Position numbers and translations under genes: made by a program
NCBI GenBank assembly: GCA_963769935.1
Contig: CAVYNY010000009.1
Location: 32,001-96,000, forward strand
Source: an uncultured delta proteobacterium
GTDB lineage: Bacteria > Desulfobacterota > Desulfobacteria > Desulfobacterales > JAFDCJ01
Reading direction: 5' to 3'
Length of the DNA: 64,000 nt
Shown: piece after piece, positions 12,652 to 64,000 of the stretch
Position numbering within the stretch: the first letter of the stretch is position 1
Layout: every line of letters starts with the position of its first letter
The notes under the pieces: model-generated
Told to the model about the DNA's origin: nothing
Database searches by the model: none
What the model saw: only the letters and a program-made list of their open reading frames with translations

Positions 12652-13824
12652 TTACGCCAAGACTTCCTGCTCTTCTTCGACTACAATGCCCCGCTCGGCC
12701 ATTCGATCCATAAACAACTGATATGGTATATGGACTGCAGGTGCCAGAATGCCTTTTTCAGAGATTTCGTTGCCGGCGATCATCTGGGCCACGATACTGG
12801 CCGTAAACCCCACCCCCTTGCTCATGGCCATCAAACCGGTCTCCAGATCGCGCTCGATTAACAGGCGCAAGGTAAGACGGATTTTCTTTCCACCCGCCAG
12901 CCCCTCAAAAATGTTCAACATGACGACCAGGTCTTTTTCGTCATCCCGGTATTGAAGTCGGGGCCCCATTAATTTGTCCAGAAACTGAATCGGTGAGACA
13001 TCGCAGGGCAGACCGGCAACGGGTTTATCATCCAAAAATCCCATTTGCTTCAAGGGGTGCCAGAAAGCGCTCCATCCGGGCCAGCGCAAAGAATACCGCC
13101 CGCTCTCTTTGATGCCGGCGGTCACGCCCAGCAAATCGGTGTATTTGACGGCATCACCGTTGGGGATGGCCTCCAGCCGACCTAACTCCGGAAAATCGAT
13201 GTAATGGATAAATTGGGGATCATGCTGGCGGGCAGCCGGGATATCCACTTCGCGGCCGTTTTTTATGGCTCGCGAATCCCGCCGGGTGGAGCTCAACACC
13301 CCCTCCCAGATCCAGGATATCTTATAGTTGATCGGATTGTCGCAAGCGGATTTTTCCGGAAATCCCCCACAGTAGGATTGGATCACCTGCAGTTCATCAA
13401 ACCGCCGGCGGCCCTCACCATAAATAATCAGATCAATGCCTGGATCAAGGCCGCATTCGGGCATGATGGCTACCCCCGCGCTGCGGGCCTGATCGGCCAG
13501 ATTTAAAATAGTGCCGGCATAATTGGTATAGACCACCCCTACGCCGGTTGTGATGGCGGCCTGACATACCTGCGGCGTGAATTGGCGGGGCAAAAGATCG
13601 ATAGCCGCATCCGCACGGCTGAAAAGTTTTACGAGATTTTCCGGATCAGCCGCGTCCAGCAGCACCGGCTGTACTTTGGACATGCCGGGATAATCCTTGA
13701 TCCGATCAAATGCTGCCAATCTAGCGTCGGCGCAGATGATTTCAGCGACATTTTCGCTGCGGGCCAGGTCGTAAACAGCGGTGCGCCCCTGAAACCCGCA
13801 TCCTCCCAGTACCAGTATCTTCAA
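12652..13824 (-). CDS. saccharopine dehydrogenase / lysine 6-dehydrogenase family protein
   Basis: Rossmann VLGGCGFQG, CGLDPG, SYCGG, YSLRWPG. GGGAGG RBS before TTG 13824. Confidence 0.8.
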   Translation of the reverse strand: MKILVLGGCGFQGRTAVYDLARSENVAEIICADARLAAFDRIKDYPGMSKVQPVLLDAADPENLVKLFSRADAAIDLLPRQFTPQVCQAAITTGVGVVYTNYAGTILNLADQARSAGVAIMPECGLDPGIDLIIYGEGRRRFDELQVIQSYCGGFPEKSACDNPINYKISWIWEGVLSSTRRDSRAIKNGREVDIPAARQHDPQFIHYIDFPELGRLEAIPNGDAVKYTDLLGVTAGIKESGRYSLRWPGWSAFWHPLKQMGFLDDKPVAGLPCDVSPIQFLDKLMGPRLQYRDDEKDLVVMLNIFEGLAGGKKIRLTLRLLIERDLETGLMAMSKGVGFTASIVAQMIAGNEISEKGILAPAVHIPYQLFMDRMAERGIVVEEEQEVLA

Positions 13825-13880
13825 GGTCGAGTCCCTCCCGTGTTTATAGCGCGAATAGGAAGACGCGCAGATAGGTTGAG

Positions 13881-13916
13881 TAAAGAATCCTGGCCCCGAG
13901 GACCAGGTTTTCAATG
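13881..13916. repeat. dispersed 36-bp repeat R1, copy 2
   Basis: TAAAGAATCCTGGCCCCGAGGACCAGGTTTTCAATG. Confidence 0.85.
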
Positions 13917-50601: not shown

Positions 50602-51054
50602 TAATTTGGTAATATTTGTCGAATCAGGATAAGTGCAATGAAAAAATATATTTCTGGTAAAATGTGCTCCTCATGCCAATCGCCGACAAGGATGCGGATT
50701 CGGCGCAAACACGCAAACAATGGATGCGAGACATACCTTTTAGCAAGCATTATTATTGTCTTAACTGTGGAGGCACCTATATCATTCTTGGTGGGCGCTT
50801 GTCATACCTCTCGATTGGTTAGAAAAAGATGACACTTAAATTTGCTTAAACCACATGTATCATCGTGTTTGAATAACTACCTAAAATTTATTTAAGAAAA
50901 GCAGTTCTCACTTCTCCAAACTGCCCTGAAAGTGAACAGTTTAAAAACTTTATTGAAAATGATTGGGGAAAGGTTTCTGAAGAGGATATCAGAAGCCTAA
51001 ATTTGCTGAGCATCACTAAGTATCGCTTACTACAAATTTAAAAGGAGGTTGAAG

Positions 51055-51354
51055 ATGAAGGGTTCTAAGTTAAAAATTCTATTTTGTCTAGCGCTAAGCC
51101 TCACCTTTTTATTGGCACCCTTTGCACTTGATTTTACTCCGACTGGAAATGCCTATGCTTTATCAGGAGGCGGTGGTGCTGGAAGTAATCATCCCGCGCC
51201 AAAAGCGACTATCCAAAGGGCTGGAAACGGTTATACCATGTCTGGCGGAGAGACTGTCCAGCCAATCTCTGTCCCAGAACCCGGAACCCTTCTTCTAGTG
51301 GGTCTCGGCATTGCTGGCCTCGCAATTTTTCGTAGAAAGAAATTTTTAAAGTAA
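51055..51354 (+). CDS. small PEP-CTERM sorting-domain protein
   Basis: Signal peptide ending AYA, VPEPGTLLLVGLGIAGLAIFRRKK. Confidence 0.88.
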   Translation: MKGSKLKILFCLALSLTFLLAPFALDFTPTGNAYALSGGGGAGSNHPAPKATIQRAGNGYTMSGGETVQPISVPEPGTLLLVGLGIAGLAIFRRKKFLK

Positions 51355-51739
51355 CATTTTAGGATAGTACGATTTCTTTTTATGCCGCGAAATATACAAG
51401 GATGATCTCTATGTTTCGTGGCATTTTGGTTTTTGTTCGTGTACTGCATAGCTAAGCCGCCAATCCCAAAATTTCATATGTACAAAACACCAAGAATTTT
51501 GAAGCGCCGAAAAACTTGAGATTTTAACAAAACCTCCACTGAATATTGAAGTGCGCTTTTCTGGTATTATCACGGAATTTTGCTGCACCGGTCTTCAAGC
51601 AACCGACGATAGGAAGCTTATGTCACGTTTAATATACTGCAAAAAAAGGTTTGATTATTCAGAAGATTCTAATATTATGGTGGATATATTAGGGTGGGTT
51701 TTGAAGAGCGCATCGGACCCCTTATAAGTAAGAGCAGAA

Positions 51740-53780
51740 ATGTATCTTTCGTTCTACAAAATAAAGGAAAAGCCTTTCAGCATCAACACCGATCCCCGGT
51801 TTCTTTGGTATGGGGAAAAACATGGGGAAGCCCTGGCCAATCTTAAATATGGTCTTATGGAGGAAAACGGCTATGTGGTTATGACAGGTGACGCTGGGAC
51901 GGGTAAAACTACGTTGGTGAATGCGCTCATAGAAACATTGGACGATAATGTACTCGTTGCCAAGATTAGCCATCCCACTTTCGGCGCTGACGAATTTCTT
52001 TACTTAGTGGCTAAAACGTACGACTCGACGGTCGAAGTCGCTGGCAAGGCCGATTGTTGGTTCTTTTTCAAATCTTTTCTACAACAGGCGCATGCCGAAG
52101 GCAAAACCACCACTCTCATTATCGACGAGGCTCATCGCTTACCTAAGGCGTCCCTTGAAGAAATACGTCTGCTATCCAACATCGAACAGGCGTACAATAA
52201 ACTTATCAACATCTTCTTAGTCGGACAGAAAGAATTAAAGCTGACACTGTCGTCTCCGGAGTGCAGCGCGCTGCGGCAGAGGATCACGCTTTTTTATGAC
52301 ATTCAACCGCTGTCCGAAGATGAGACCCGGGACTATGTGGTTCACCGTTTGAAAGTTGCCGGCACTGAGGAACAGTTGTTTACCTTCGAGGCGATCCATC
52401 AGATTCAGAATTTTACGCGGGGATATCCGCGCCTCATCAATATAATTTGCGATCGTGCGATGTTGACGGGCTATTTGAAAGAGCAAAAAATGATCGATGC
52501 AGGTATTGTCTCTGAGTGCGCCCGTGAAATCAGCTTTCTTGATACTACGGCATCTGATACCGAAACCATTAAGATTGACAAATTTTCAACGCAGACCCCC
52601 CCGCCGTTGCCGGGTCGTGGATTCATAAGGAGGATCACAAGAACAGCGCCCGAGGAGAATCGAATTCCATGCGGACACGCGTCCGCACAAAAAATGTCAA
52701 AAATGCCACTTATCAAAAGGCCACCACTTCATTGGTGAAAAAGAACCAACGGAAATTGACAGCGATCGGACTCCTTGCAGCCACCGTTCTTGTGGCCTTT
52801 GTGGGGGGCATTGGCCTCAAGATGGGATCGAAGGTTAAAACAGCTGCATCGAGACATGTCGATCGAATTACACTTGCAGAAAAAGCAAGCTTTCCTGCTC
52901 GCCGTGATGCTCTTGCCGAGCTTCAGCAACCAACTGACAACGCTGAATCAGTCTCCGAAATACTTGTGCAGGACGCCCCAAAAGCGGCAACAAAATTGCA
53001 GAAACAGCAACCAGCCGAAGAAATCATCGTCTATAATAAGGAACATGCACCGGCAAGCCCGAAGCCCACAATTGCCGCAATCCCGTCGCTCAAAGAATCT
53101 CGCTCTCGTGAGGCTAAATCAAATGAGCTAAAAAAACCCGCGACGGCAGGGTCAGCTGAATTTACGCCCAAAAAATCACTAAGGAATTTAGACCGACGAC
53201 CCTGGAATTGGCAACCGCAGCGCTGAAACAACAAAACTTTAGGACGGCAATCGAACTGCTCGAAGCTGACCGGAGCCTCGATGCCCAGAAAAGTTCAAAA
53301 GCCAGGGAGCTATATTCAGAAGCACTGACTGGTCGAGCTGGCCAGATTATGGAGAGATCACCACTCGAAGCTGAAACCATGATGCGCAAAGCCGTAGAAG
53401 CGGATCCTAAAAATATCAGAGCCCACTTTGAGCTGGGCAAAATTTACACTCAAACCAAAAAATACGCCCAAGCCATCGACGCCTATCAAAATGCCGTTGC
53501 CCTGAATCCTAATTTTTCCGACGCTTTTTTCAACCTTGGTTTCATCTATGCTACAACCGGTAACTACAAAGAAGCAGAAATTGTTTTTACAAGAGTTGTC
53601 CACTTGAAGCCTACTTATCTTGACAAGGCGCTCTTTAACCTCGCTCTGGTGCAGGAAAGGCTCGGGGAAAAGCAGGAGAGCTTGGCAAATCTGAAAAAGG
53701 CGGTCACTGTCAGGCCGGAGGATAAAAGAATTCAAGCCTATTTAAAACAAGTTGAAATTAGCGCAAAGGAGAGCCCATGA
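51740..53780 (+). CDS. ExeA/GspA-family AAA ATPase-TM-TPR protein, split by two frameshifts
   Basis: MY..F...EKPF...DP.F, GDAGTGKTT, IIDEAH, LVGQ.EL, LRQRI, GYPRLIN..CD. Frame changes near C7 (about 52600) and A6 (about 53172). TPR repeats at the C-terminus. Confidence 0.75.
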
Positions 53781-54328
53781 TGGATGTGACGAAAGTATCA
53801 ACCGTCCGTTGCATTATGGTGATGGTCATTTTATGGTCGTTCGGCTGTAGCATATTTCAACCGGCCGGGCAAGAAAAAGTACCGCCTGAGACTCCTGTAC
53901 CACTTGCGACCAAACAGGCTCTGGATTCCCCTAAGGATGCACGCCCACTGCCACCACCCAAAGTAAAATATCTTAACCACAAAATCAAATGGCCGGGTGA
54001 GAATCTCAGTTTGATTGCTCGTTGGTATACCGGATCAGCCAAAAACTGGATGCGCTTGGTAGAGGCCAATCCGGGAATCGAACCGAGACGGATCAAAATA
54101 GGGGATTCAATTTTAATTCCAGAAGACCTCTTGAAAACCCGGCAACCCATGCCGATTGAGTTCCTGTCTTCTGCGACCTCCCCCCAAAAAGCGCCTCCGT
54201 CACCATCGGCAAAAAAGGCAGGTAATTCCGATAAAATCGATCTTTTTGGGCCGATCGATACCGAGGCCCAAACAAGCGACGCTGATGATATCGACTCCCC
54301 CTTGCCCTTGGAGACCATTGAGGAATAA
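53777..54328 (+). CDS. LysM-domain lipoprotein
   Basis: Lipobox-like FGC, H....GENLSLIA.WYTG...W..L..ANP......IKIGD.I.IP. Confidence 0.75.
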   Translation: MMDVTKVSTVRCIMVMVILWSFGCSIFQPAGQEKVPPETPVPLATKQALDSPKDARPLPPPKVKYLNHKIKWPGENLSLIARWYTGSAKNWMRLVEANPGIEPRRIKIGDSILIPEDLLKTRQPMPIEFLSSATSPQKAPPSPSAKKAGNSDKIDLFGPIDTEAQTSDADDIDSPLPLETIEE

Positions 54329-54588: not shown

Positions 54589-55215
54589 TTATGATGTTAC
54601 AAAGTGCGCTTCCAGCCGACCGGATCTCAACTCCACAATTCCCTGGAACTCCGCTGATCTGTTTTCTGAATGCATCGGCCGGAAGCGCACGCAAGGTTTA
54701 CTTATTAAACCTTTGTGCTGCAGCAATTGAGCCTGCTCCGCGGTAATGGTACCGTCCGCAAGCCCTTTTTCAATCAGCTGGTTCATAAGCTCGCGACGCT
54801 CGGACCGGAGTTGGGATTTACGCTCAATTCTATCACTATACTCCTTCGCCTGATCCGGCGTGATATATCCGCCGGCCGCCAGATATTGAACCAGGGTATT
54901 CATCTTTGCCTGCATCGCCGTGTGGAATGCCTGACGATCGATGTTGTATTCTGTCATAAATTCGCGCAGGTGATGCTCTTCCAGCTTTTGCCGGACGGTT
55001 TCGGCAGGTTGGCCGCTCAATTCGGCGAGCACTGAAACTGCCATGGTTTGTTTGGCGTAATAGGCCATGGGCCCGAGTCCGTCTTTTCCATACGCGCCGC
55101 GATGCCGAAATCCCCGACCGGCATCATCCCCCATGCCGGCGGCCACAGCAGCTCCAATGAATACCAGGCCGATTAAAAGCACACCTATGACAATGATGGT
55201 TTGATTCTTTTTCAT
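54589..55215 (-). CDS. exported helical protein, probable target of the adjacent two-component system
   Basis: Signal peptide, two G.IT..QA repeats. 3' end may be frameshifted (alternative stop near 54700). Confidence 0.65.
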   Translation of the reverse strand: MKKNQTIIVIGVLLIGLVFIGAAVAAGMGDDAGRGFRHRGAYGKDGLGPMAYYAKQTMAVSVLAELSGQPAETVRQKLEEHHLREFMTEYNIDRQAFHTAMQAKMNTLVQYLAAGGYITPDQAKEYSDRIERKSQLRSERRELMNQLIEKGLADGTITAEQAQLLQHKGLISKPCVRFRPMHSENRSAEFQGIVELRSGRLEAHFVTS

Positions 55216-55298
55216 GAGTACCTCCCTTGGTTTAGTTGGTGAATTTGAGATAACAAAAGACTTTGTTTCCCAGTGTTAATTGCACTATAACAATCGAC

Positions 55299-55331
55299 TG
55301 TGGAGAAAATATGGAGAAATTATGTGAAGTT
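55299..55331. promoter_or_regulatory. OmpR/BaeR-type direct repeats
   Basis: TGTGGAGAAAA/TATGGAGAAAT/TATGTGAAGTT with 11-bp period, minus-strand -10 TATAGT at 55284-55289. Confidence 0.6.
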
Positions 55332-55379
55332 CGTAGGGATCTCTGGAATTGTTTGATCTATGAAGTTAATTGTATTAAA

Positions 55380-55627
55380 TAAGGTTTCAGGTGTTCCGCC
55401 GAAGGCGGACCGCCGGCCAAAACAAAGGCCGATCTGATCGAAAAAGAAACATAATGGTTCACCGCCGAGACCGCCGAGACCGCCGAGAAAGAAATTTCTA
55501 ATTTGTCTCCGCGCTCTCTGCGCTCTCAGCGGTGAGACACTTCATAAAAATGACCTCGAATTTAATGAAGTTTCATACGAGCGCCGCCGCTGGCCGCAAG
55601 CGTCCAGTCTGATCGTAGAAGAAACTT
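55380..55627. repeat. composite repeat R2, copy 2, plus 9-mer inverted arms and a further partial copy
   Basis: Matches 36672-36812. CACCGCCGAGACCGCCGAG / CTCTGCGCTCTCAGCGGTG arms. GCCGCTGGCC..CCAGTCTGATCG.AGAAGAAAC at 55584-55627. Confidence 0.8.
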
Positions 55628-55713
55628 AATGTAGTTTCATATATGGTGTTAGCTCAGACGCCGTCAGCCGAAGTTTATATGGCAGGGTGGACAGTTTGAT
55701 CGGAAGAAAATTA

Positions 55714-57171
55714 ATGAAGACAAAGCTTTTCTATAAAATTTTCGCCACGTTTTTATTGACGTCTTTTATGATCGTGGCCCTGATGGTCGGCTTCATACGA
55801 TTTTATGTGACCCGCAATTTTACGGACTATGTCAACAACGCCGCCTTGGAGAGGCTCGATGACCTAAAGGACGAATTGGCTGCGGTCTATCGGCAGCATG
55901 GGGATTGGAGCTCTCTGGAAGACAATCAGCCGCGCTGGGAAGAAGTTTTGCGCTCCCAAATTCCGCGCCAAGATTTTAGCTTACGGCGGCACCCGTCCGT
56001 ATTTTCTGATTCTGAGAGTAAAACCGGTTTGCGATCTTCTCAGAGCAGCGCGTCGTCGACATCGCGCGAACGTCTTCATCGACTTGCCCGGGGGCTTGCC
56101 CTTTTTGATGCTCAGCAGCAAAAGGTCGTCGGGAGCCGGCCGGGTCTATCCGCTGAGAGTTTTACGCTGTCGGAAATCAGCGTTGACGGCAAAATCGTCG
56201 GCTGGCTGGGGCTTTATAAAAGGGAGCACCTGTCGAACCAGCGGGTGGCTGCATTTTTAGCTCAGCAATCCCGGGCATTATATCTGATCGGCGGCCCGAT
56301 TCTGCTGCTGGCAGCGATCGTTGCGTTTCTTTTGTCCAGACACTTTCTGGCACCCATCCGGCAGCTCACGGCCGGAACCCGGGCCTTGAGTTCGCGGCGA
56401 TTCGACACCCGAATCGAGGTGCATTCACAGGATGAGCTGGGACAGCTCGCCCGTGATTTCAACATGATGGCCCAAACCCTGGCAAAATACGAAAAAATGC
56501 GCCAACAATGGATCTCCGATATCTCGCATGAGCTGCGCACGCCCCTGTCTGTTTTGCGCGGCGAACTGGAAGCAATTCAAGACGGCGTGCGGGAGATGAA
56601 CCGGGAAACACTGGATTCCCTGCATGCCGAAGTGCTGCATGTAGCCAAGATCGTAAATGATCTGCATGAGCTGTCATTGGCCGATGCCGGTTCGCTTTCT
56701 TTCAACAAGGAACCGATCGACCCGCTGCTGGTTCTGGCCGACACCCTGAAAGCCTTTAGAACCCGGTTCGAGAGGCAGGCCATCGATTTGCAGGCAGATC
56801 TGGCTTCTGATGCGCGGGTCCGCATTCTGGGAGATGCAGATCGACTCACCCAGCTCTTTTCCAATCTGCTGGAAAACACCCTGCGCTATGCAGATGCGCC
56901 CGGGACTTTAAAATTGGGGTACAATCGTACGGCAAACCAAATCACGCTGTATTTTGAGGATTCCGGCCCCGGCGTGCCGCAGGCATCATTGGAGCACCTT
57001 TTTGACAGGCTCTACCGTGTGGATAAATCAAGAAGCCGCGCGCTGGGAGGCAGCGGTCTGGGCTTGAGTATTTGCAAAAGTATCGTGGATACTCTCGGGG
57101 GACAAATCAGGGCCGTCAACGCTCCATCAGGCGGTCTGCGCATTGAAATTGTGCTGCCGCTGGAAAGCTGA
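55714..57171 (+). CDS. HAMP sensor histidine kinase (BaeS-like)
   Basis: 2 TM helices, DELG.LA..FN, ISHELRTP, NLLEN..RY, DSGPG, GGSGLGL. Confidence 0.92.
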   Translation: MKTKLFYKIFATFLLTSFMIVALMVGFIRFYVTRNFTDYVNNAALERLDDLKDELAAVYRQHGDWSSLEDNQPRWEEVLRSQIPRQDFSLRRHPSVFSDSESKTGLRSSQSSASSTSRERLHRLARGLALFDAQQQKVVGSRPGLSAESFTLSEISVDGKIVGWLGLYKREHLSNQRVAAFLAQQSRALYLIGGPILLLAAIVAFLLSRHFLAPIRQLTAGTRALSSRRFDTRIEVHSQDELGQLARDFNMMAQTLAKYEKMRQQWISDISHELRTPLSVLRGELEAIQDGVREMNRETLDSLHAEVLHVAKIVNDLHELSLADAGSLSFNKEPIDPLLVLADTLKAFRTRFERQAIDLQADLASDARVRILGDADRLTQLFSNLLENTLRYADAPGTLKLGYNRTANQITLYFEDSGPGVPQASLEHLFDRLYRVDKSRSRALGGSGLGLSICKSIVDTLGGQIRAVNAPSGGLRIEIVLPLES

Positions 57172-57311
57172 GAAGATGAGAAGTTGAGAAGTTGGGAAAT
57201 AAACCGGCATTTCTTCCTTTCTCCTTGATCATCTTCAACTCAATCAATTCAATCTACTTATTCAACTCTATGAACTATGATCTATCAACTATGAACTTTC
57301 AACTATCAACC
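57170..57311. repeat. short tandem 7-8-mer tracts
   Basis: GAGAAGAT/GAGAAGTT repeats and CTATGAA/CTATCAA repeats between the kinase and regulator genes. Confidence 0.6.
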
Positions 57312-57351
57312 CATAAAGCATGTAGCTGACAAAATTGGAAAGCGAGCGTTC

Positions 57352-58047
57352 ATGGCAACCGAACATATACTTGTCGTTGAAGACGAGCAGAAAATAGCGC
57401 GGCTCATCTGCGATTATCTGGCAAAATCAGGGTATAAAACCGATCACCTGGACCGCGGCGACAAGGTCATTCCCTGCATCAAAAAAGATATGCCGGATCT
57501 GATTCTGCTGGATCTGATGCTGCCCGGCATGGAGGGTACCGACGTTTGCCGGGAGATTCGAAAATTTTCCGACGTACCGGTTATCATGATCACGGCCCGC
57601 GTCGAAGAAATCGACCGGCTGCTGGGCCTTGAGCTGGGAGCCGATGACTATATCTGCAAGCCGTTCAGCCCCCGCGAGGTGGTGGCCCGCGTCAAAGCGG
57701 TGCTGCGCCGCGCTTTGCCGAAACAGGATGTCAAGCAAATGAAAGCCGGCCCCATATTGCTGGAAGAAGACACCCACCAGGTCAGGATCGGCGATTGGAA
57801 TTTGATTTTAACTCCCAGTGAATTCGGATTGCTGAAAGTTTTTATGTCCCACCCCAACCGCGTATTTTCCCGCAGCGAATTGCTCGACCGGGTGCAGGGC
57901 TACCAGTTCGAGGGCTATGACCGCACCATCGACAGCCACGTCAAAAATCTGCGCAAAAAAATTGCCGCCGTACTCCCCGATCAGGAAATCATCAGCACGG
58001 TCTATGGCGTGGGATACAAGTTCAGCGAGCTGTCTGAAGAATCTTGA
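57352..58047 (+). CDS. OmpR-family response regulator (BaeR-like)
   Basis: VEDE, LDLMLP, GADDY.CKPFSPRE, RTIDSHVKNLR, TVYGVGY. Confidence 0.93.
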   Translation: MATEHILVVEDEQKIARLICDYLAKSGYKTDHLDRGDKVIPCIKKDMPDLILLDLMLPGMEGTDVCREIRKFSDVPVIMITARVEEIDRLLGLELGADDYICKPFSPREVVARVKAVLRRALPKQDVKQMKAGPILLEEDTHQVRIGDWNLILTPSEFGLLKVFMSHPNRVFSRSELLDRVQGYQFEGYDRTIDSHVKNLRKKIAAVLPDQEIISTVYGVGYKFSELSEES

Positions 58048-58115
58048 CACCTTGATATATCTAAATAATCCCGATTGACGGCAAACAAAATGGCAACCCG
58101 CCAGGGAGATGAACA

Positions 58116-58505
58116 ATGAACTCCAAAGAAGATAAAAGGACATCATTGGCAGCGGCTGAAAATATGATGCAGGATGAAATGGAGACACCAGCGACCGTAA
58201 TTGCCCAAGGGGCGCACGTTAAGGGGGTCATAAGCTGCCCGGATCAGCTTTCCGTTTTGGGAAGTATGGAAGGAGACATCGATTGCGGCGGGATGGTCAA
58301 AATAGGCCCTAAAGGCGTCGTGCAGGGGAATATATTTGCCCGCAAGGTCATCCTGGAAGGCGCGGTTCATGGCCATATACAATCGGCCGAATACGTTGAA
58401 ATCAAGCCCACCGGACGACTGATCGGTAATCTCAACGCCGCTAAAATCAGGCTGTTTGGGGGTTGCATTTTTGAAGGTAAGTCCATCATGCAAAGAGAAG
58501 CATAA
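58116..58505 (+). CDS. bactofilin (polymer-forming cytoskeletal protein)
   Basis: TVI..G..V.G, G.V.GNI, G..F.G beta-helix pattern. Confidence 0.8.
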   Translation: MNSKEDKRTSLAAAENMMQDEMETPATVIAQGAHVKGVISCPDQLSVLGSMEGDIDCGGMVKIGPKGVVQGNIFARKVILEGAVHGHIQSAEYVEIKPTGRLIGNLNAAKIRLFGGCIFEGKSIMQREA

Positions 58506-58515
58506 AACCGGGACT

Positions 58516-60513
58516 TTACTTCAAGACCTGATCAACCACTTCGTTTAATTCATCGATCGTGATAATTTCGAGGTCTTTTCGGATCTCTTCCGGAATTTCT
58601 CTGAGATTGGCTTCATTTTTAACCGGAAACACAACGGTTTTGATCCCGGCCCGGTGAGCGGCCAGCAACTTTTCTTTAACGCCGCCGACCGGGAGTATCC
58701 GGCCGGTTAATGTCAGTTCCCCGCTCAAGGCCGTATCCCGGCGGCAGGGTCGTCCGGTGATAAGAGACAGCAGGGCGACGGCGATCGTTAATCCTGCCGA
58801 AGGCCCGTCTTTGGGAATCGCGCCGGCGGGCACATGGATGTGAATATCATGCAGTTCGAAAAAATCCTCCGGTATGAGATATTCGCCGGTATGACTTCGG
58901 ATGTAGCTCATGGCAGCCTGGGCCGATTCCTTCATCACATTGCCGAGGGAGCCCGTCAGGATCAGCTGGCTTTTGCCTTTCATCTTGGTTGCCTCGATAA
59001 AAATAATCTCTCCTCCGCTGTCCGTCCATGCCAGGCCGGTCGCCACGCCGATTCTGTCTTTAGCCTGAGTGACCTCAAAATAAAATTTCCTGGGCCCCAG
59101 CAGGGTCTCTACGATTTCCGGAGTAACATAATCCGGCGCCTGTCTGAAATCACGGCTTAATTGATCGCGGGCGATTTTACGGCACAGGGATGCGATTTGC
59201 CGCTGAAGGTTGCGCAGACCCGCCTCCCGGGTATATTCCCTGATAATTTTGCGGACCGCCTCTTTCGCAAACCGGACGGAATCCGCGATCAGCCCGGCGG
59301 CTTGGATTTCTTTCGGAATCAGATATCTGAACGCGATCTGCTCTTTTTCCAGTTCCGTATATCCGGAAAGGTACAGGACTTCGAATCGGTCCAGCAGCGG
59401 TTCGGGTATGGGATCGATGGTATTGGCGGTGGCAATAAACATGGTCTTTGAGAGGTCAAAGGGAACATCGAGATAGTGATCCATAAATTGATTGTTCTGC
59501 TCCGGATCCAGGACTTCCAGCAGGGCTGAGGCCGGATCTCCTTTGAATTCCTGACCGATTTTGTCTATTTCATCCAGCATAAATACCGGATTCTTAGCTT
59601 CACAGCGCCTGATTTCCTGGATAATGCGTCCGGGCAGCGCCCCCACATAGCTGCGGCGGTGTCCCCTGATCTGGGCCTCGTCCTTCATACCGCCCAGGGA
59701 GATGCGAATAAATTTGCGTTCCAGGCTGCGGGCGATGGACATTCCCAGCGACGTTTTTCCGGTGCCCGGCGGTCCCACAAAACACAAAAGCGGGCCCCGG
59801 GACTCCAGCTGGGCTCTTTTTTTTGACAACGCCGCTTTGACGGTGGACCGAATCTCATCCAGCTTGAAAGGCTTGGAAAGGTAATAATAAGATCCTTTTT
59901 TCATGGCTTCTACGGCTGTCGGTACCGTCGCGTAACCGCTGATCATGATGACCTCGACGGTAGGATCCTTTTTCTTGGCCGATTCCAGCACCCCCATACC
60001 GTCGACATTTTCCATTTTAAGATCGGTAATGATGACCTCAAAACTTTGCTTTTCCAAAAGATTCAGGGCCTCTGCACCGCCGGCGGCCGTCATCACCTCG
60101 CAGCCCTCGCGAGTCAGCACATGATCCAGGTTTTTGCGGGTAATTTCCTCATCATCAACCACCAAAATGCGGTGTTTGCGCGACAGCTTCAATATCCGCA
60201 CCGCCAGGTGTTCCAAAATGCGGTCCTTAACCTCCGCCAGACCGTAATGGGCTTCGTCTAAGATGGCCTCCGCGCGCCGGATGTCCAGGTTGTCCTCGGT
60301 CGATTTGTTCCAGGGCAGACTTGCCAAATACTCGATATGGTTGGTGCCGATGGTGTATTCCGGCGCGGAAGGGCTGGTTCTATTAAGCTTTTCCAGTTCT
60401 TTGAGGGCAATTTTTTCAACCTGGGGCGGCATCCGGGCTTCCCGCACCAGTTCCACAAACCCGTCGATCTCGGTGGGTTCCTGATTGTCTTCGGCTTTTT
60501 TAAATATTCCCAT
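58516..60513 (-). CDS. lon: Lon (endopeptidase La) lacking the N-domain, with an inserted receiver domain
   Basis: LPW, HYGL..VKDRILE.LAV, then REC, then [34 protein letters not shown] (Ser), GGVKEK (Lys). Confidence 0.92.
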
Positions 60514-60535
60514 AAACTGATATACCGTAATAAAG

Positions 60536-60750
60536 GAATGCCAAAAGTGATCTAAATTGCCAAAAGTGACAAAAATTAAGGAAACGCTGCGCTGTCTTTT
60601 TATGAAATTGACAGAATAGCAAAATTTTAGCTCACTTTTCTTCAGTTTTCAAAGATCAATATAATAGAATCCTCGAGGCAAGTCAAAACTTGTTTGGGTC
60701 ATTGGAATTTGCATATTGTTTGTTATTGGTAATTTGGTGCTTATAATTTT
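60536..60750. repeat. 9-mer and 7-mer arm elements between usp and lon
   Basis: AAAGTG..C-type tandem arm, core CGCTGCGCTGTCTTTTT..AAATTGACAGAAT similar to 27881-27913, and a TTGT/TTGG heptamer arm. Confidence 0.6.
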
Positions 60751-60829: not shown

Positions 60830-61723
60830 TCACCTCAGAATTAGCACCGACGACTCGCCGGCCCGGATGAGTCGATCCACTGTCTTGCGGGAAAACGCCT
60901 TTTGCAGGATGGATTTTTCTCCCATCCAGAGCGCCATCAGGCCCCAGCGCCCTTCCTGGCTGACAAAGGTTTCCAGGGAGGAAATCTTCACCAGCTCTAT
61001 CCGCGGCCAGATTTTTTTGGCGGTATAGTATTTCAGAATCGCGTCCAATTTTCGTTCGACATTTTTGGGTAAACTCTCACCTTCCGTCAACCCCACAACT
61101 TCCAGCTCAGCCCCGTGAAGGGTTACCATCTGACTGATCATCTCAAGGGATTCCTGGCTGACACGGTCATGGTCCAGGCAGCAGAGAATTTTCTTAATTT
61201 CCTTCTCTTTTTTTATTACCCACACCGAGCAGTTGGCCGAGGAGGCTACTTTCTGCGGGATGTTGCCCCATTCTTCCCAGAAACACGCCTGGCCCCGTTC
61301 ACAGCCGAGAACAATAAGATCACTGCCGTCCTGCCGGGCTTCCGCCAGAATCTCCTTGACAGGATTCCCCTGGCGTATCGTCACATTGAAATCTTTACGG
61401 CTGCTGCGCCCCACGTAGAATTCCTGCCAAAGGTTGGGTTCTATTCGCAGCAGTTCGTATTCGAATTTCAGCTGGGTATAAGGCGAGGCCTCGCCTTCAA
61501 AACGGCTGAGAAACGCATCACGATAGGCATGCATGGCCTTGGCAAGAGAAGGATCAATTTTGCGCCGGCCTGAATCAGATGCGGATGTGTCGACGCCGGT
61601 CCTTTTTTTGGGCTGCAGCCCTAAAAGGGTGATGTCGCCCCAGGTGTTCATTGCCAGACCGGCCACCTGGTGAACAGCGTGGGCGCTGTAAGGATTTTGA
61701 TCTACAGCAACGAGAATTCTCAT
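60830..61723 (-). CDS. universal stress protein (tandem domains)
   Basis: MRILVAVD, G.P..EIL.EA, DLIVLG, CSV.V.K, SVLILR. Confidence 0.8.
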   Translation of the reverse strand: MRILVAVDQNPYSAHAVHQVAGLAMNTWGDITLLGLQPKKRTGVDTSASDSGRRKIDPSLAKAMHAYRDAFLSRFEGEASPYTQLKFEYELLRIEPNLWQEFYVGRSSRKDFNVTIRQGNPVKEILAEARQDGSDLIVLGCERGQACFWEEWGNIPQKVASSANCSVWVIKKEKEIKKILCCLDHDRVSQESLEMISQMVTLHGAELEVVGLTEGESLPKNVERKLDAILKYYTAKKIWPRIELVKISSLETFVSQEGRWGLMALWMGEKSILQKAFSRKTVDRLIRAGESSVLILR

Positions 61724-61738
61724 AAGTACCTCTAATTT

Positions 61739-62557
61739 TTAGTGCCAGCCAATCAGAACTGGAGAAGGATTGCGACTCAACAGATCTACCATGGGCCTAT
61801 TTTCTAAATTCTCACGCGGAAGAGACGCCAGGACCATACCGTAGTCCTGTATCGATTGATCGAGTGATTCGGAAACGGCTTCAACGATCCGGCTTGCTCT
61901 GGGTTTGCGGCCCTTTGCGGCCAGCATGTTCTCGGCAGCCCGCAGAGCGGTTTCCAGGCGGAATGTTGCGTTGGGCTCGGCAGCTTCTCCCGTATTCTGA
62001 AACCGGCAGCAAACGAGGTCGAGGTCGACCTGGACCCCTTCAAATAATTTTAAAAAGACCGATACGCAAGACTGCATGTCGTTTGCTTCCCCCAATGCCA
62101 AAATACCCTTGTCCAGACTCATCAGGTTTTTGACCAGTAAAGCCGGGCACGGCAGGTTTCGATAAAGCCGCGAATGGATTTTCTTTAGAAAATTCGCCGG
62201 TTCAAAAGCGTGCAAAATACCTTCGCTGAACAGATCGTAATCTGCAACCTGCAGCTCGTGCAGAATCTCCATATCCCGCTTGCCGGCAACCATTTTCGGA
62301 TTTCCCAGCTCGGGACATGCAACCTTTTCCGCCTGGATCAGCTGGGCAATGCTGTCCCGGCCCTTCAGGACCATCGCATCCTCCCAGGTCTGCCGCACCC
62401 AGCCGGTGCCCGGCGTAGGGCCTTGTTCATCCGGTTTGGCCACATAAATCATCTGCAGCCTCAAACCGGTCAATTCTGCCAAATGACAGGCATATCGTAT
62501 GGCAATACTGGATGCCAGATCAGCCTTTACAGCAATCAATGCCTTGAGCGTGCTCAT
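61739..62557 (-). CDS. universal stress protein-like
   Basis: LIAV, GTGWV..TWE, CPALLVK, PVLI. Confidence 0.65.
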   Translation of the reverse strand: MSTLKALIAVKADLASSIAIRYACHLAELTGLRLQMIYVAKPDEQGPTPGTGWVRQTWEDAMVLKGRDSIAQLIQAEKVACPELGNPKMVAGKRDMEILHELQVADYDLFSEGILHAFEPANFLKKIHSRLYRNLPCPALLVKNLMSLDKGILALGEANDMQSCVSVFLKLFEGVQVDLDLVCCRFQNTGEAAEPNATFRLETALRAAENMLAAKGRKPRASRIVEAVSESLDQSIQDYGMVLASLPRENLENRPMVDLLSRNPSPVLIGWH

Positions 62558-62676
62558 CGTCCTATATCCTCTTTCATGTCTACTTAACTAAGTACACGGT
62601 TTCATAAATAAGGCAGCGTATAATCTACTGAAGCCCAGCCGATGATTTGACCGCCTTTACGATGAATGATTTTAAT

Positions 62677-62832
62677 TTTCACCGCAAGACGCAATGAGCG
62701 CAAAGGGTACTTTTCTTTTCATTTGCCTTCCTCCTTGCCTTGCCATAGGCCCATTCTTTAAAGGACGAAGGCAGGTCAACGGCAAATAATAAATATTTTC
62801 TCTCTGCATCCTTCGCGCCTCTGCGGTGAAAA
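62677..62832. repeat. inverted 9-mer-arm element
   Basis: TTTCACCGCAAGACGCAATGAGCGCAAAG ... CTCTGCATCCTTCGCGCCTCTGCGGTGAAA. Confidence 0.65.
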
Positions 62833-62907
62833 AATATTACTACCAATACGTCACCGTAATTACGAATCGTGAACTAAGGCTTCCTCTGGAAGCCTCCGCC
62901 GCCGAAA

Positions 62908-64000
62908 TTACGGGTGCTCGTCAGCTAAATCAGCAGAGGCAACGATTTCAGCAGGGATGGTGGTGACCGGCAACGTCACGGTAAAGGAGGATCCCGCCCC
63001 TTCCCGGCTGCTGACCCGGATGCGCCCGCCGTGCTTGCCGACGATGCCCTGAGATACGCTCAACCCCAAGCCGGTGCCTTTACCCTTGCCTTTGGTGGTA
63101 AAAAAGGGATCAAAAATAGAGCCCAGGATGTGCCGCGGTATGCCGCTGCCGAAATCGATAATTTTCACCGCCAGGTAATGAGGGTCATCCGCCGGCACAA
63201 TGATGACCTGAATCTTGCTTCCTTTGGGCGAAGCATCTATGGCGTTTAACATCAGATTGAGAAAGACCTGTTCGAGCTGCTGGCTGTCGCCGTGCACCCG
63301 GGGCAGGTTGTCGGCGGTCTGAAATTCGATTTTAATGCCCGAAAGCTTGATCTGGTTGGAAGCCAGGTTGATGGTTTCCTCGAGCAGATGCACCAGGTCC
63401 AGCGGTTCAAGCTGGGAGCCGCTTTCCCGCGCAAAATCCAGCAGGTTGCTGATAATTTTTTTGGAGCGGCCGGCTTCATTGACCACATCACCGATCATTT
63501 CTTTGCGCTCCGCATCACTCAGGGTGTCATAGTCTTCCAGCAGCATGTCGGCCGTAAGGGTAATGTTGTTCAGCGGATTATTCAGTTCGTGGGCCACCCC
63601 GGCCGTAAGGGTACCCACCGCCCGCATTTTGTGGGACTGGATGAGCACGACCTCGCGGTTTTCCAGATCCTGGATCATGCGGTTGAACGCCAGAGCCAGT
63701 TCGGTGAACTCATCCCGGTAGGCACGGGCCGGCATGATGGGCGTATAATCCCCCGAAGCGATGCGCCGGGCGTACGTTGAAAAGCGCTTGATGGATCGGA
63801 GGAGGCGCGTACCCAGGAAAAAGGCGTAGATTCCTAAAAAGATCAGCAAAATGATCAGCGAGTAGATAGTGATATAGCGCGAACGGGCGATGACGTCGGT
63901 CAGGGATTTCTTCTCCCGCCGCATCATACCCTGAGCGTAGGAAAGCAGCTGGTGGCCGTATTTTCGCAGTTCCGGTTCGATTTCATTTTTTTCCCGCTGA
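62908..64000 (-). CDS. membrane HAMP histidine kinase, NtrB-like (5' end outside window)
   Basis: TM, HAMP, AHELNNPL, QVFLNL..NA, D.G.G, FDPFFTTK, GTGLGL. Confidence 0.92.
   Translation of the reverse strand, partial: QREKNEIEPELRKYGHQLLSYAQGMMRREKKSLTDVIARSRYITIYSLIILLIFLGIYAFFLGTRLLRSIKRFSTYARRIASGDYTPIMPARAYRDEFTELALAFNRMIQDLENREVVLIQSHKMRAVGTLTAGVAHELNNPLNNITLTADMLLEDYDTLSDAERKEMIGDVVNEAGRSKKIISNLLDFARESGSQLEPLDLVHLLEETINLASNQIKLSGIKIEFQTADNLPRVHGDSQQLEQVFLNLMLNAIDASPKGSKIQVIIVPADDPHYLAVKIIDFGSGIPRHILGSIFDPFFTTKGKGKGTGLGLSVSQGIVGKHGGRIRVSSREGAGSSFTVTLPVTTIPAEIVASADLADEHP

Follow-up and report, generated by a model that had tools for sequence, protein, structure and literature searches.

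The window analysed here, a stretch of 64,000 nucleotides, contains on its minus strand the gene of a Lon protease with a receiver domain, designated REC-Lon. The features of the gene and of its upstream region are given below, with residue counts referring to 298 sequences (P0001, 240 listed homologues and 57 open reading frames from REC-Lon loci, with some overlap).

58516–60513, minus strand: REC-Lon gene (P0001), one open frame of 665 residues, orthologous by sequence to DVU3303 of Desulfovibrio (Nitratidesulfovibrio) vulgaris Hildenborough.
60496–60513, minus strand: short N-terminal motif (Met, two hydrophobic and two basic residues), with Phe4 in 292 of 298 sequences.
60181–60471, minus strand: LonA three-helix bundle and the next helix, residues 15–111 (alignment and model).
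59803–60180, minus strand: 126-residue insert, residues 112–237, comprising the receiver domain and the start of an activator-type linker helix.
60151–60156, minus strand: acidic pair D120/D121.
60022–60024, minus strand: predicted phospho-acceptor D164 (298 of 298).
59938–59940, minus strand: switch residue S192 (Ser or Thr in 298 of 298).
59872–59874, minus strand: receiver lysine K214 (298 of 298).
59368–59787, minus strand: AAA+ core with Walker A (247–254), Walker B (D314/E315), and Y289 and R376, which we take, after LonA, to be the pore loop and the arginine finger.
59155–59301, minus strand: Lon lid domain (Pfam) with R434, presumably sensor-2.
58522–59127, minus strand: S16 protease domain with the dyad S572–K615 (Pfam and alignment).
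60539–60569, no strand assigned: 12-bp perfect direct repeat, copies at 60539 and 60558, 19 bp apart, in the 316-bp gap upstream of the gene.
60830–62557, minus strand: two Usp-type genes upstream of Lon, one product (297 residues) matching Pfam Usp and the other (272 residues) clustering with tandem-Usp proteins.
62908–63999, minus strand: 3' part of the gene for histidine kinase HK1, belonging to a second module and continuing beyond the window.

The direct repeat, a pattern chosen by eye, has 2 matches in the window versus 0.03 expected and is a possible regulator site. The N-terminal motif (Met-hydrophobic-Phe-basic) of REC-Lons could be a membrane or partner anchor. One contig assembled from RNA run X4 lacks 286 bases (62586–62871) of the gap between the Usp gene and the HK1 gene, probably as a strain difference. 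On the other side of the Lon gene, positions 54589–58505 hold genes for a BaeS/BaeR-like kinase and an OmpR-type regulator, divergent from that of a DUF2680-like protein, and a bactofilin gene convergent with the Lon gene. The receiver of the OmpR-type regulator is unlike that of REC-Lon. Further away, at 51049–54328, we labelled by eye a PEP-CTERM protein, an ExeA-like AAA gene apparently split across frames (51740–52738 and 52669–53226), a TPR protein and a LysM-like lipoprotein.

Pfam assigned to REC-Lon the domains Response_reg (116–225, E value of 3e-28), AAA (243–382), Lon_lid (405–453) and Lon_C (463–664), and did not report LON_substr_bdg anywhere in the 665 residues. The protein passed the TIGR00763 lon equivalog cut-off (738 bits versus 608). 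Aligned with the two intact canonical Lons of the same genome, it lacks the first ~245 residues and displays a clean insertion; the three-helix bundle (residues 15–65) is kept, whereas the globular N-domain and the long helix are gone. The confident AlphaFold2 model (mean pLDDT of 79.8) folded the insert as a five-stranded receiver linked to the remainder of the chain by the long helices 93–111 and 218–237, the second of which enters the Walker A strand. The matches listed by Foldseek for this model were Lon structures throughout, headed by the hexameric LonA 4ypl, and no Lon with a receiver was present among the PDB matches listed. Walker A and B, pore loop, arginine finger and Ser-Lys dyad are all present. 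REC-Lon is a LonA devoid of its N-domain and containing an inserted, intact receiver, in agreement with the preliminary description, which had reported from the sequence a missing N-terminal substrate domain and a receiver placed just before Walker A. Judging from its sequence, it is derived from LonA and is not the canonical housekeeping enzyme. Since the genome contains three further LonA genes with N-domains, one of them frameshifted (L085:1520–3983, contig C21; an assembly indel is possible), REC-Lon is an extra paralogue. No separate N-domain gene lies beside REC-Lon, the sole stand-alone one in the genome being on contig C20. Longer fused forms were absent from 1112 candidates of 1165–3325 residues, an observation of little weight.

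The distance between the R-x-x-E-[HYF]-L-A helix and Walker A was 138 residues in 267 of the 269 measurable REC-Lons versus 12 residues in 39 of 42 canonical Lons, which sets the insert at 126 residues (~59803–60180). The insert displays the acidic pair, the phospho-Asp, the Ser/Thr, the Lys and the five-stranded fold of a receiver, and PF00072 was found in all 120 homologues listed. The residues that the preliminary description had read as intact proved to be near-invariant or invariant in the 298 sequences, both in the receiver (D164, K214 and S/T192 in 298, D120 in 297, D121 in 295) and in the ATPase and protease domains (K253 and E315 in 298, R376 in 296, K615 in 295, S572 in 294), each of the latter being changed in at most 4 sequences. 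The invariant phosphorylation site, the fixed length of the insert and a kinase-contact helix in common with a sigma-54 activator (see below) strongly support, at the level of sequence, a receiver that can be phosphorylated and that is still under selection. At three loci (L148, L150 and L152), REC-Lons form a subgroup whose acidic pocket is altered and which lacks a closely related activator in its vicinity; this subgroup is possibly rewired.

The preliminary description had allowed for the possibility of a chimeric assembly. One contig of 951 bases from run X3 covers positions 59682–60637, including both insert junctions, with 30 differing letters and 12 gap positions; two contigs of run X4 cover one insert junction each. 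Since both junctions are bridged by sequence assembled from a different run, REC-Lon is not chimeric. Transcription of the gene cannot be deduced from its presence in RNA libraries X3 and X4. Among 401 genomes drawn from the phylum, at least 45 also contained the full junction, and two more were identified by the receiver match only; the survey scored 8 candidates per genome and thus gives a lower bound. Apparent frameshifts near the gene and in another Lon of the assembly could speak for an artefact or for a receiver that is a mere passenger on an unregulated additional Lon. Against this stand the independent contig, the distribution of the junction and the phosphorylation site preserved in 298 of 298 sequences, and we regard either form of this explanation as highly improbable, the chimera being refuted by the X3 contig.

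The preliminary description had also guessed that similar fusions were already known, and this is correct. In the published description, DVU3303 is a response regulator that contains a Lon domain and forms a three-component system with the kinase DVU3304 and the sigma-54 activator DVU3305; phosphorylation was proposed as a possible requirement for its protease activity (Rajeev 2011, PMC3333781). The same source names orthologues in other sulfate reducers, Thermodesulfovibrio, Thioalkalivibrio and Dechloromonas, and the regulon of the system is listed in PMC4641369. A record from Desulfovibrio sp. X2 carries the name 'response regulator receiver modulated ATP dependent protease'. Neither the family nor the hypothesis of a phospho-switched REC-Lon is therefore new, the idea having been in print since 2011. 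No biochemical study of a REC-Lon was found in the literature searched, in which subscription papers were thinly covered. We took AAS97772.1 to be DVU3303, based on the name of the record and on its length of 702 residues, which fits the published coordinates; it is 48% identical to REC-Lon over 634 residues. A tree of the ATPase-protease core was constructed from 29 REC-Lons (about half of the 55 usable) and 31 canonical Lons (every second long canonical Lon and two of the present genome). In this quick, unrooted tree, REC-Lons, including DVU3303 and the present protein, were split from canonical Lons by one branch (SH-aLRT of 99). By this phylogenetic evidence, REC-Lon is an orthologue of DVU3303.

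The genes that provide candidate partners of REC-Lon are located on the same contig (G000 C9), outside the window:

C9:102561–103881 (L081:12562–12744, 12776–13306 and 13325–13882): a 60-residue protein and two Usp-like proteins carrying the FAEAGE helix described below.
C9:107089–108516: kinase HK2.
C9:108748–110106: sigma-54 activator EBP2.

To the right of the window, the Lon strand of C9 encodes HK1, two single receivers, a TauE-type transporter, a cytidylate-kinase-like protein, a Usp and the activator EBP1. The TauE gene (L081:7413–8517, equivalent to C9:97412–98516) is frameshifted in the assembly, possibly by an assembly indel; nearby TauE-type transporter and Usp genes are a mark of the DVU3303 type. 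A divergent operon encodes the 60-residue protein, the two Usp-like proteins, an SLC13-type permease, a cytidylate-kinase-like protein, HK2 and EBP2, the last two ~15–16 kb upstream from REC-Lon. Since the divergent operon is much nearer to Lon at loci L116 and L001 than in the present genome, the EBP1/HK1 block is an apparent intervening module. A survey of 57 REC-Lon loci, extending at most 10 kb on each side, ended in some cases by contig ends and including kin that are not independent, revealed a TauE/SLC13-type transporter in 55 loci, a Usp-like gene in 53, an activator in 48 and a kinase in 42. The order Lon-kinase-activator in one operon was found in 2 of the 57 loci (L017 and L154) and is not that of the present genome. 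The single operon is a local arrangement of D. vulgaris rather than a rule of the family. An aldehyde:ferredoxin oxidoreductase gene (L082:5986–7872, equivalent to C9:112985–114871) lies 3 kb from EBP2, with TrkA/TrkH in between, which is reminiscent of D. vulgaris, where links to chlorate (aor) and to potassium uptake exist. A link of the oxidoreductase to REC-Lon was not retained, as its gene formed no cluster present in at least 4 of the loci compared.

Among the 183 receiver domains of the genome, the best non-self match of the Lon receiver was that of EBP2 (56% identity, 143 bits), followed by a match at 113 bits; identity to the EBP1 receiver was 35%. Helix 1 of a receiver is the surface touching the kinase, and helix 1 of the Lon receiver is near-identical to that of EBP2. 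The resemblance of the insert to EBP2 extends past the receiver into the activator linker. The same relationship was observed across the family: the best receiver match of the Lon receiver was a sigma-54 activator in 47 of the 52 loci containing another receiver, 45 of these at 40–59% identity. Kinases and activators of the neighbourhood clusters were nearer to HK2 than to HK1 (41 of 44) and nearer to EBP2 than to EBP1 (52 of 54), respectively. A quick receiver tree grouped the Lon and activator receivers (SH-aLRT of 98), but this group also contains EBP1 and three single receivers, so that the tree alone cannot single out EBP2. HK2 is likely to be the kinase for both EBP2 and REC-Lon, since the two receivers have the kinase-contact helix in common. 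HK1, the kinase present in the window, is disfavoured as the cognate enzyme by the likeness of the Lon receiver to EBP2 and by the comparison of the kinases to HK2. What this analysis adds to the published system is the proximity of the insert to the receiver and linker of one particular sigma-54 activator and a likely kinase located ~15 kb upstream, outside the window.

The assignment of HK2 and EBP2 to the DVU3304/DVU3305 type was judged from the family loci and from the published binding motif (Tables S7 and S9 of PMC3333781) rather than from an alignment to DVU3304 and DVU3305. Of 56 REC-Lons, 33 have the DVU3305 palindrome within 500 bp upstream, versus 0.7 expected from shuffled sequences, and none of 59 canonical Lons has it; across REC-Lon loci, the palindromes are mostly paired, 86–89 bp apart. 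In the present genome, a predicted pair at C9:102328 and C9:102414, 86 bp apart, lies in the divergent promoter of the cluster, followed by a sigma-54 site that scores 12/12 and points towards the SLC13-HK2-EBP2 operon. The motif scan identified neither a DVU3305-type site nor a sigma-54 site directly upstream from the present REC-Lon. A sigma-54 promoter driving Lon was not retained for the family, since a site scoring at least 10/12 was directed towards Lon in a single locus of the 36 and in the opposite direction in 5, most loci displaying no detected site. Sigma-70-like sites upstream were also weak candidates (8 found versus 4.1 expected).

HK2 has a Glu following the phospho-His. A Gln occupies this position in 27 of the 41 cognate-type kinases matched by the pattern (at 23 loci in addition to L003, L017, L121 and L135); the pattern missed one further His-Glu kinase and four kinases that are unrelated. 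In CrdS, Gln at this position abolished kinase activity and left phosphatase activity (PMC3510030). By analogy, the His-Gln kinases are possibly natural phosphatase-only sensors or enzymes with an unusual kinase chemistry. A PEP-synthase-like protein of ~850 residues (PPDK_N and PEP-utiliser domains) is encoded at 9 of the 57 loci (L010, L015, L121, L123, L132, L135, L141, L153 and L155), and wherever a kinase of the family is in view at these loci it is of the His-Gln type. This protein is a possible alternative source of phosphate.

We consider it probable that HK2 phosphorylates D164 alongside EBP2 and that phosphorylation switches on the ATP-driven degradation of a few dedicated substrates. 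The membrane kinase HK2 would modify D164 of REC-Lon in parallel with the sigma-54 activator EBP2. Given that the last helix of the receiver enters the Walker A strand at an invariable spacing, the step affected by phosphorylation would be the assembly of the ring or the coupling of its ATPase, as in NtrC/DctD-type AAA+ activators. Receivers of sigma-54 activators govern the assembly of the AAA+ ring, negatively in NtrC1 and DctD and positively in NtrC (PMC10696123). By analogy with these proteins, gating of the REC-Lon ring is the most likely role of its activator-type receiver, which precedes Walker A at a constant spacing. The likeliest substrates of the phosphorylated protease would be products or regulators of the TauE/SLC13 transporter-Usp operon. 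Among the observations that count against the shared-kinase switch are the Gln-type kinases, the missing upstream sites and the altered pockets of the L148, L150 and L152 proteins.

The absence of the N-domain suggests that REC-Lon would not be a general protein quality-control protease. MtaLon lacking its N-domain retained ATPase, peptidase and casein degradation and lost the degradation of damaged proteins (PMC8087443), and in full-length Lon the long helices form a tethering triangle (PMC10643698). Since these activities persist and the triangle is lost, REC-Lon should, by analogy, be competent but narrow in specificity and devoid of the normal gate. The loss of the normal substrate-capture site together with the N-domain also raises a rather unlikely alternative, according to which the receiver is a targeting module replacing the N-domain: as a copy of the activator receiver, it would dock on the cognate kinase or pair with the receiver of the activator, handing either partner over to be degraded or remodelled, or would serve as a phosphate sink. 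The proximity of the insert to the receiver and linker of EBP2 fits such docking, and receivers that steer proteases exist, CpdR and RssB doing so for proteolysis by ClpXP. However, the fixed length of the insert is more suggestive of mechanical coupling than of a flexible tether, and, unless polarity intervenes, feedback destruction predicts opposite signs for the fitness effects of Lon and of its kinase and activator, whereas the signs are identical in D. vulgaris.

In the fitness data in question, the D. vulgaris genes for Lon, the kinase and the activator display a mutant cofitness above 0.9; all three genes are detrimental in 6.25 mM chlorate, their loss being helpful, and the target transporter DVU3299 is needed under this condition (fitness of −2.3), its loss being harmful (Trotter 2023, PMC10102598). 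DVU3303 is the first gene of its operon and overlaps DVU3304, so that this cofitness is possibly a polar effect. The direction of the proposed switch is a guess: activation by phosphorylation is favoured because Lon, kinase and activator have a common fitness sign, which polarity could mimic. A simple model fits poorly with a benefit from the loss of Lon, kinase or activator and a cost from the loss of DVU3299. The reverse direction, in which phosphorylation would switch the protease off and the signal would stabilise a constantly removed substrate while the activator induces its operon, appears unlikely to us. It would accommodate a Lon that is active unaided when lacking its N-domain (PMC8087443), the regulation of AAA+ rings by receivers in both directions (PMC10696123) and the apparent phosphatase bias of many cognate-type kinases, yet the loss of the kinase should then oppose the loss of Lon, and the fitness signs are identical.

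A conserved helix of ~25 residues with the core A-x-x-F-A-E-A-G, designated the FAEAGE helix, occurs at 34 of the 57 loci, in a stand-alone protein of ~60 residues and in the N-terminal parts of Usp-like proteins. The present 8-Mb genome contains three copies only, all in the REC-Lon cluster. Scanning of two small FAEAGE proteins with Pfam gave no match. The motif was detected in 65 of the 401 genomes of the phylum, often in several copies. An obligatory partnership with Lon was rejected: although 30 of the 45 genomes with REC-Lon contain the motif, so do 35 of the 356 other genomes of the sample, and none of the 18 loci in one subgroup has it. The motif model was built from REC-Lon loci, which biases it towards overlap. 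Prediction of the complex between full-length REC-Lon and the 60-residue protein returned a score of 0.00 twice, with an uncertain fold for the partner, and carries no weight on binding either way. DVU3302 (59 residues) is similar in size to the 60-residue protein. The helix is a substrate lead only. A bolder proposal, decidedly speculative in our opinion, would be that the receiver and linker of an activator were grafted into a headless Lon, that one kinase flips two AAA+ rings through an identical switch and that the FAEAGE helix is a dedicated substrate tag. If so, the cluster would amount to an autonomous circuit for phospho-gated proteolysis, equipped with a degron or adaptor of its own, one ring making the proteins of the module and the other destroying them.

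When a protease doubles as a response regulator, it offers a direct path from two-component signalling to protein destruction. REC-Lon, HK2 and EBP2 can now be named as a set, and D. vulgaris provides a genetic model with a chlorate phenotype.

REC-Lon has in common with canonical LonA (endopeptidase La, S16) the bundle, the AAA+ motifs, the lid and the Ser-Lys protease, and differs from it by the absence of the N-domain and long helix and by the additional receiver. Its N-terminus is similar in kind to the truncation point of the engineered MtaLon 242–793 (PMC8087443). As both the N-domain and the long helix are absent, REC-Lon would be unable to form the tethering triangle of helices (PMC10643698). 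NtrC/DctD sigma-54 activators (REC-AAA+-HTH) also have a receiver ahead of an AAA+ ring; that of REC-Lon lies inside the chain rather than at the N-terminus, and the output would be proteolysis rather than transcription. As proposed for REC-Lon, regulated proteolysis by ClpXP is governed by the phosphorylation state of a receiver in the adaptors CpdR and RssB; these act in trans, whereas the receiver of REC-Lon is part of the protease subunit, and its matches to NCBIfam models of the CpdR/RssB type were weak and under the cut-off. In comparison to DVU3303, the present Lon gene lies outside the kinase-activator operon and is set apart from the divergent promoter by a second module of ~10 kb (an activator, a Usp, a cytidylate-kinase-like protein, TauE, two receivers, a kinase and two Usp); the HK2/EBP2 operon includes an SLC13-type transporter. 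The two systems are nevertheless alike in protein architecture, insertion point of the receiver, types of partners and palindrome of the cluster.
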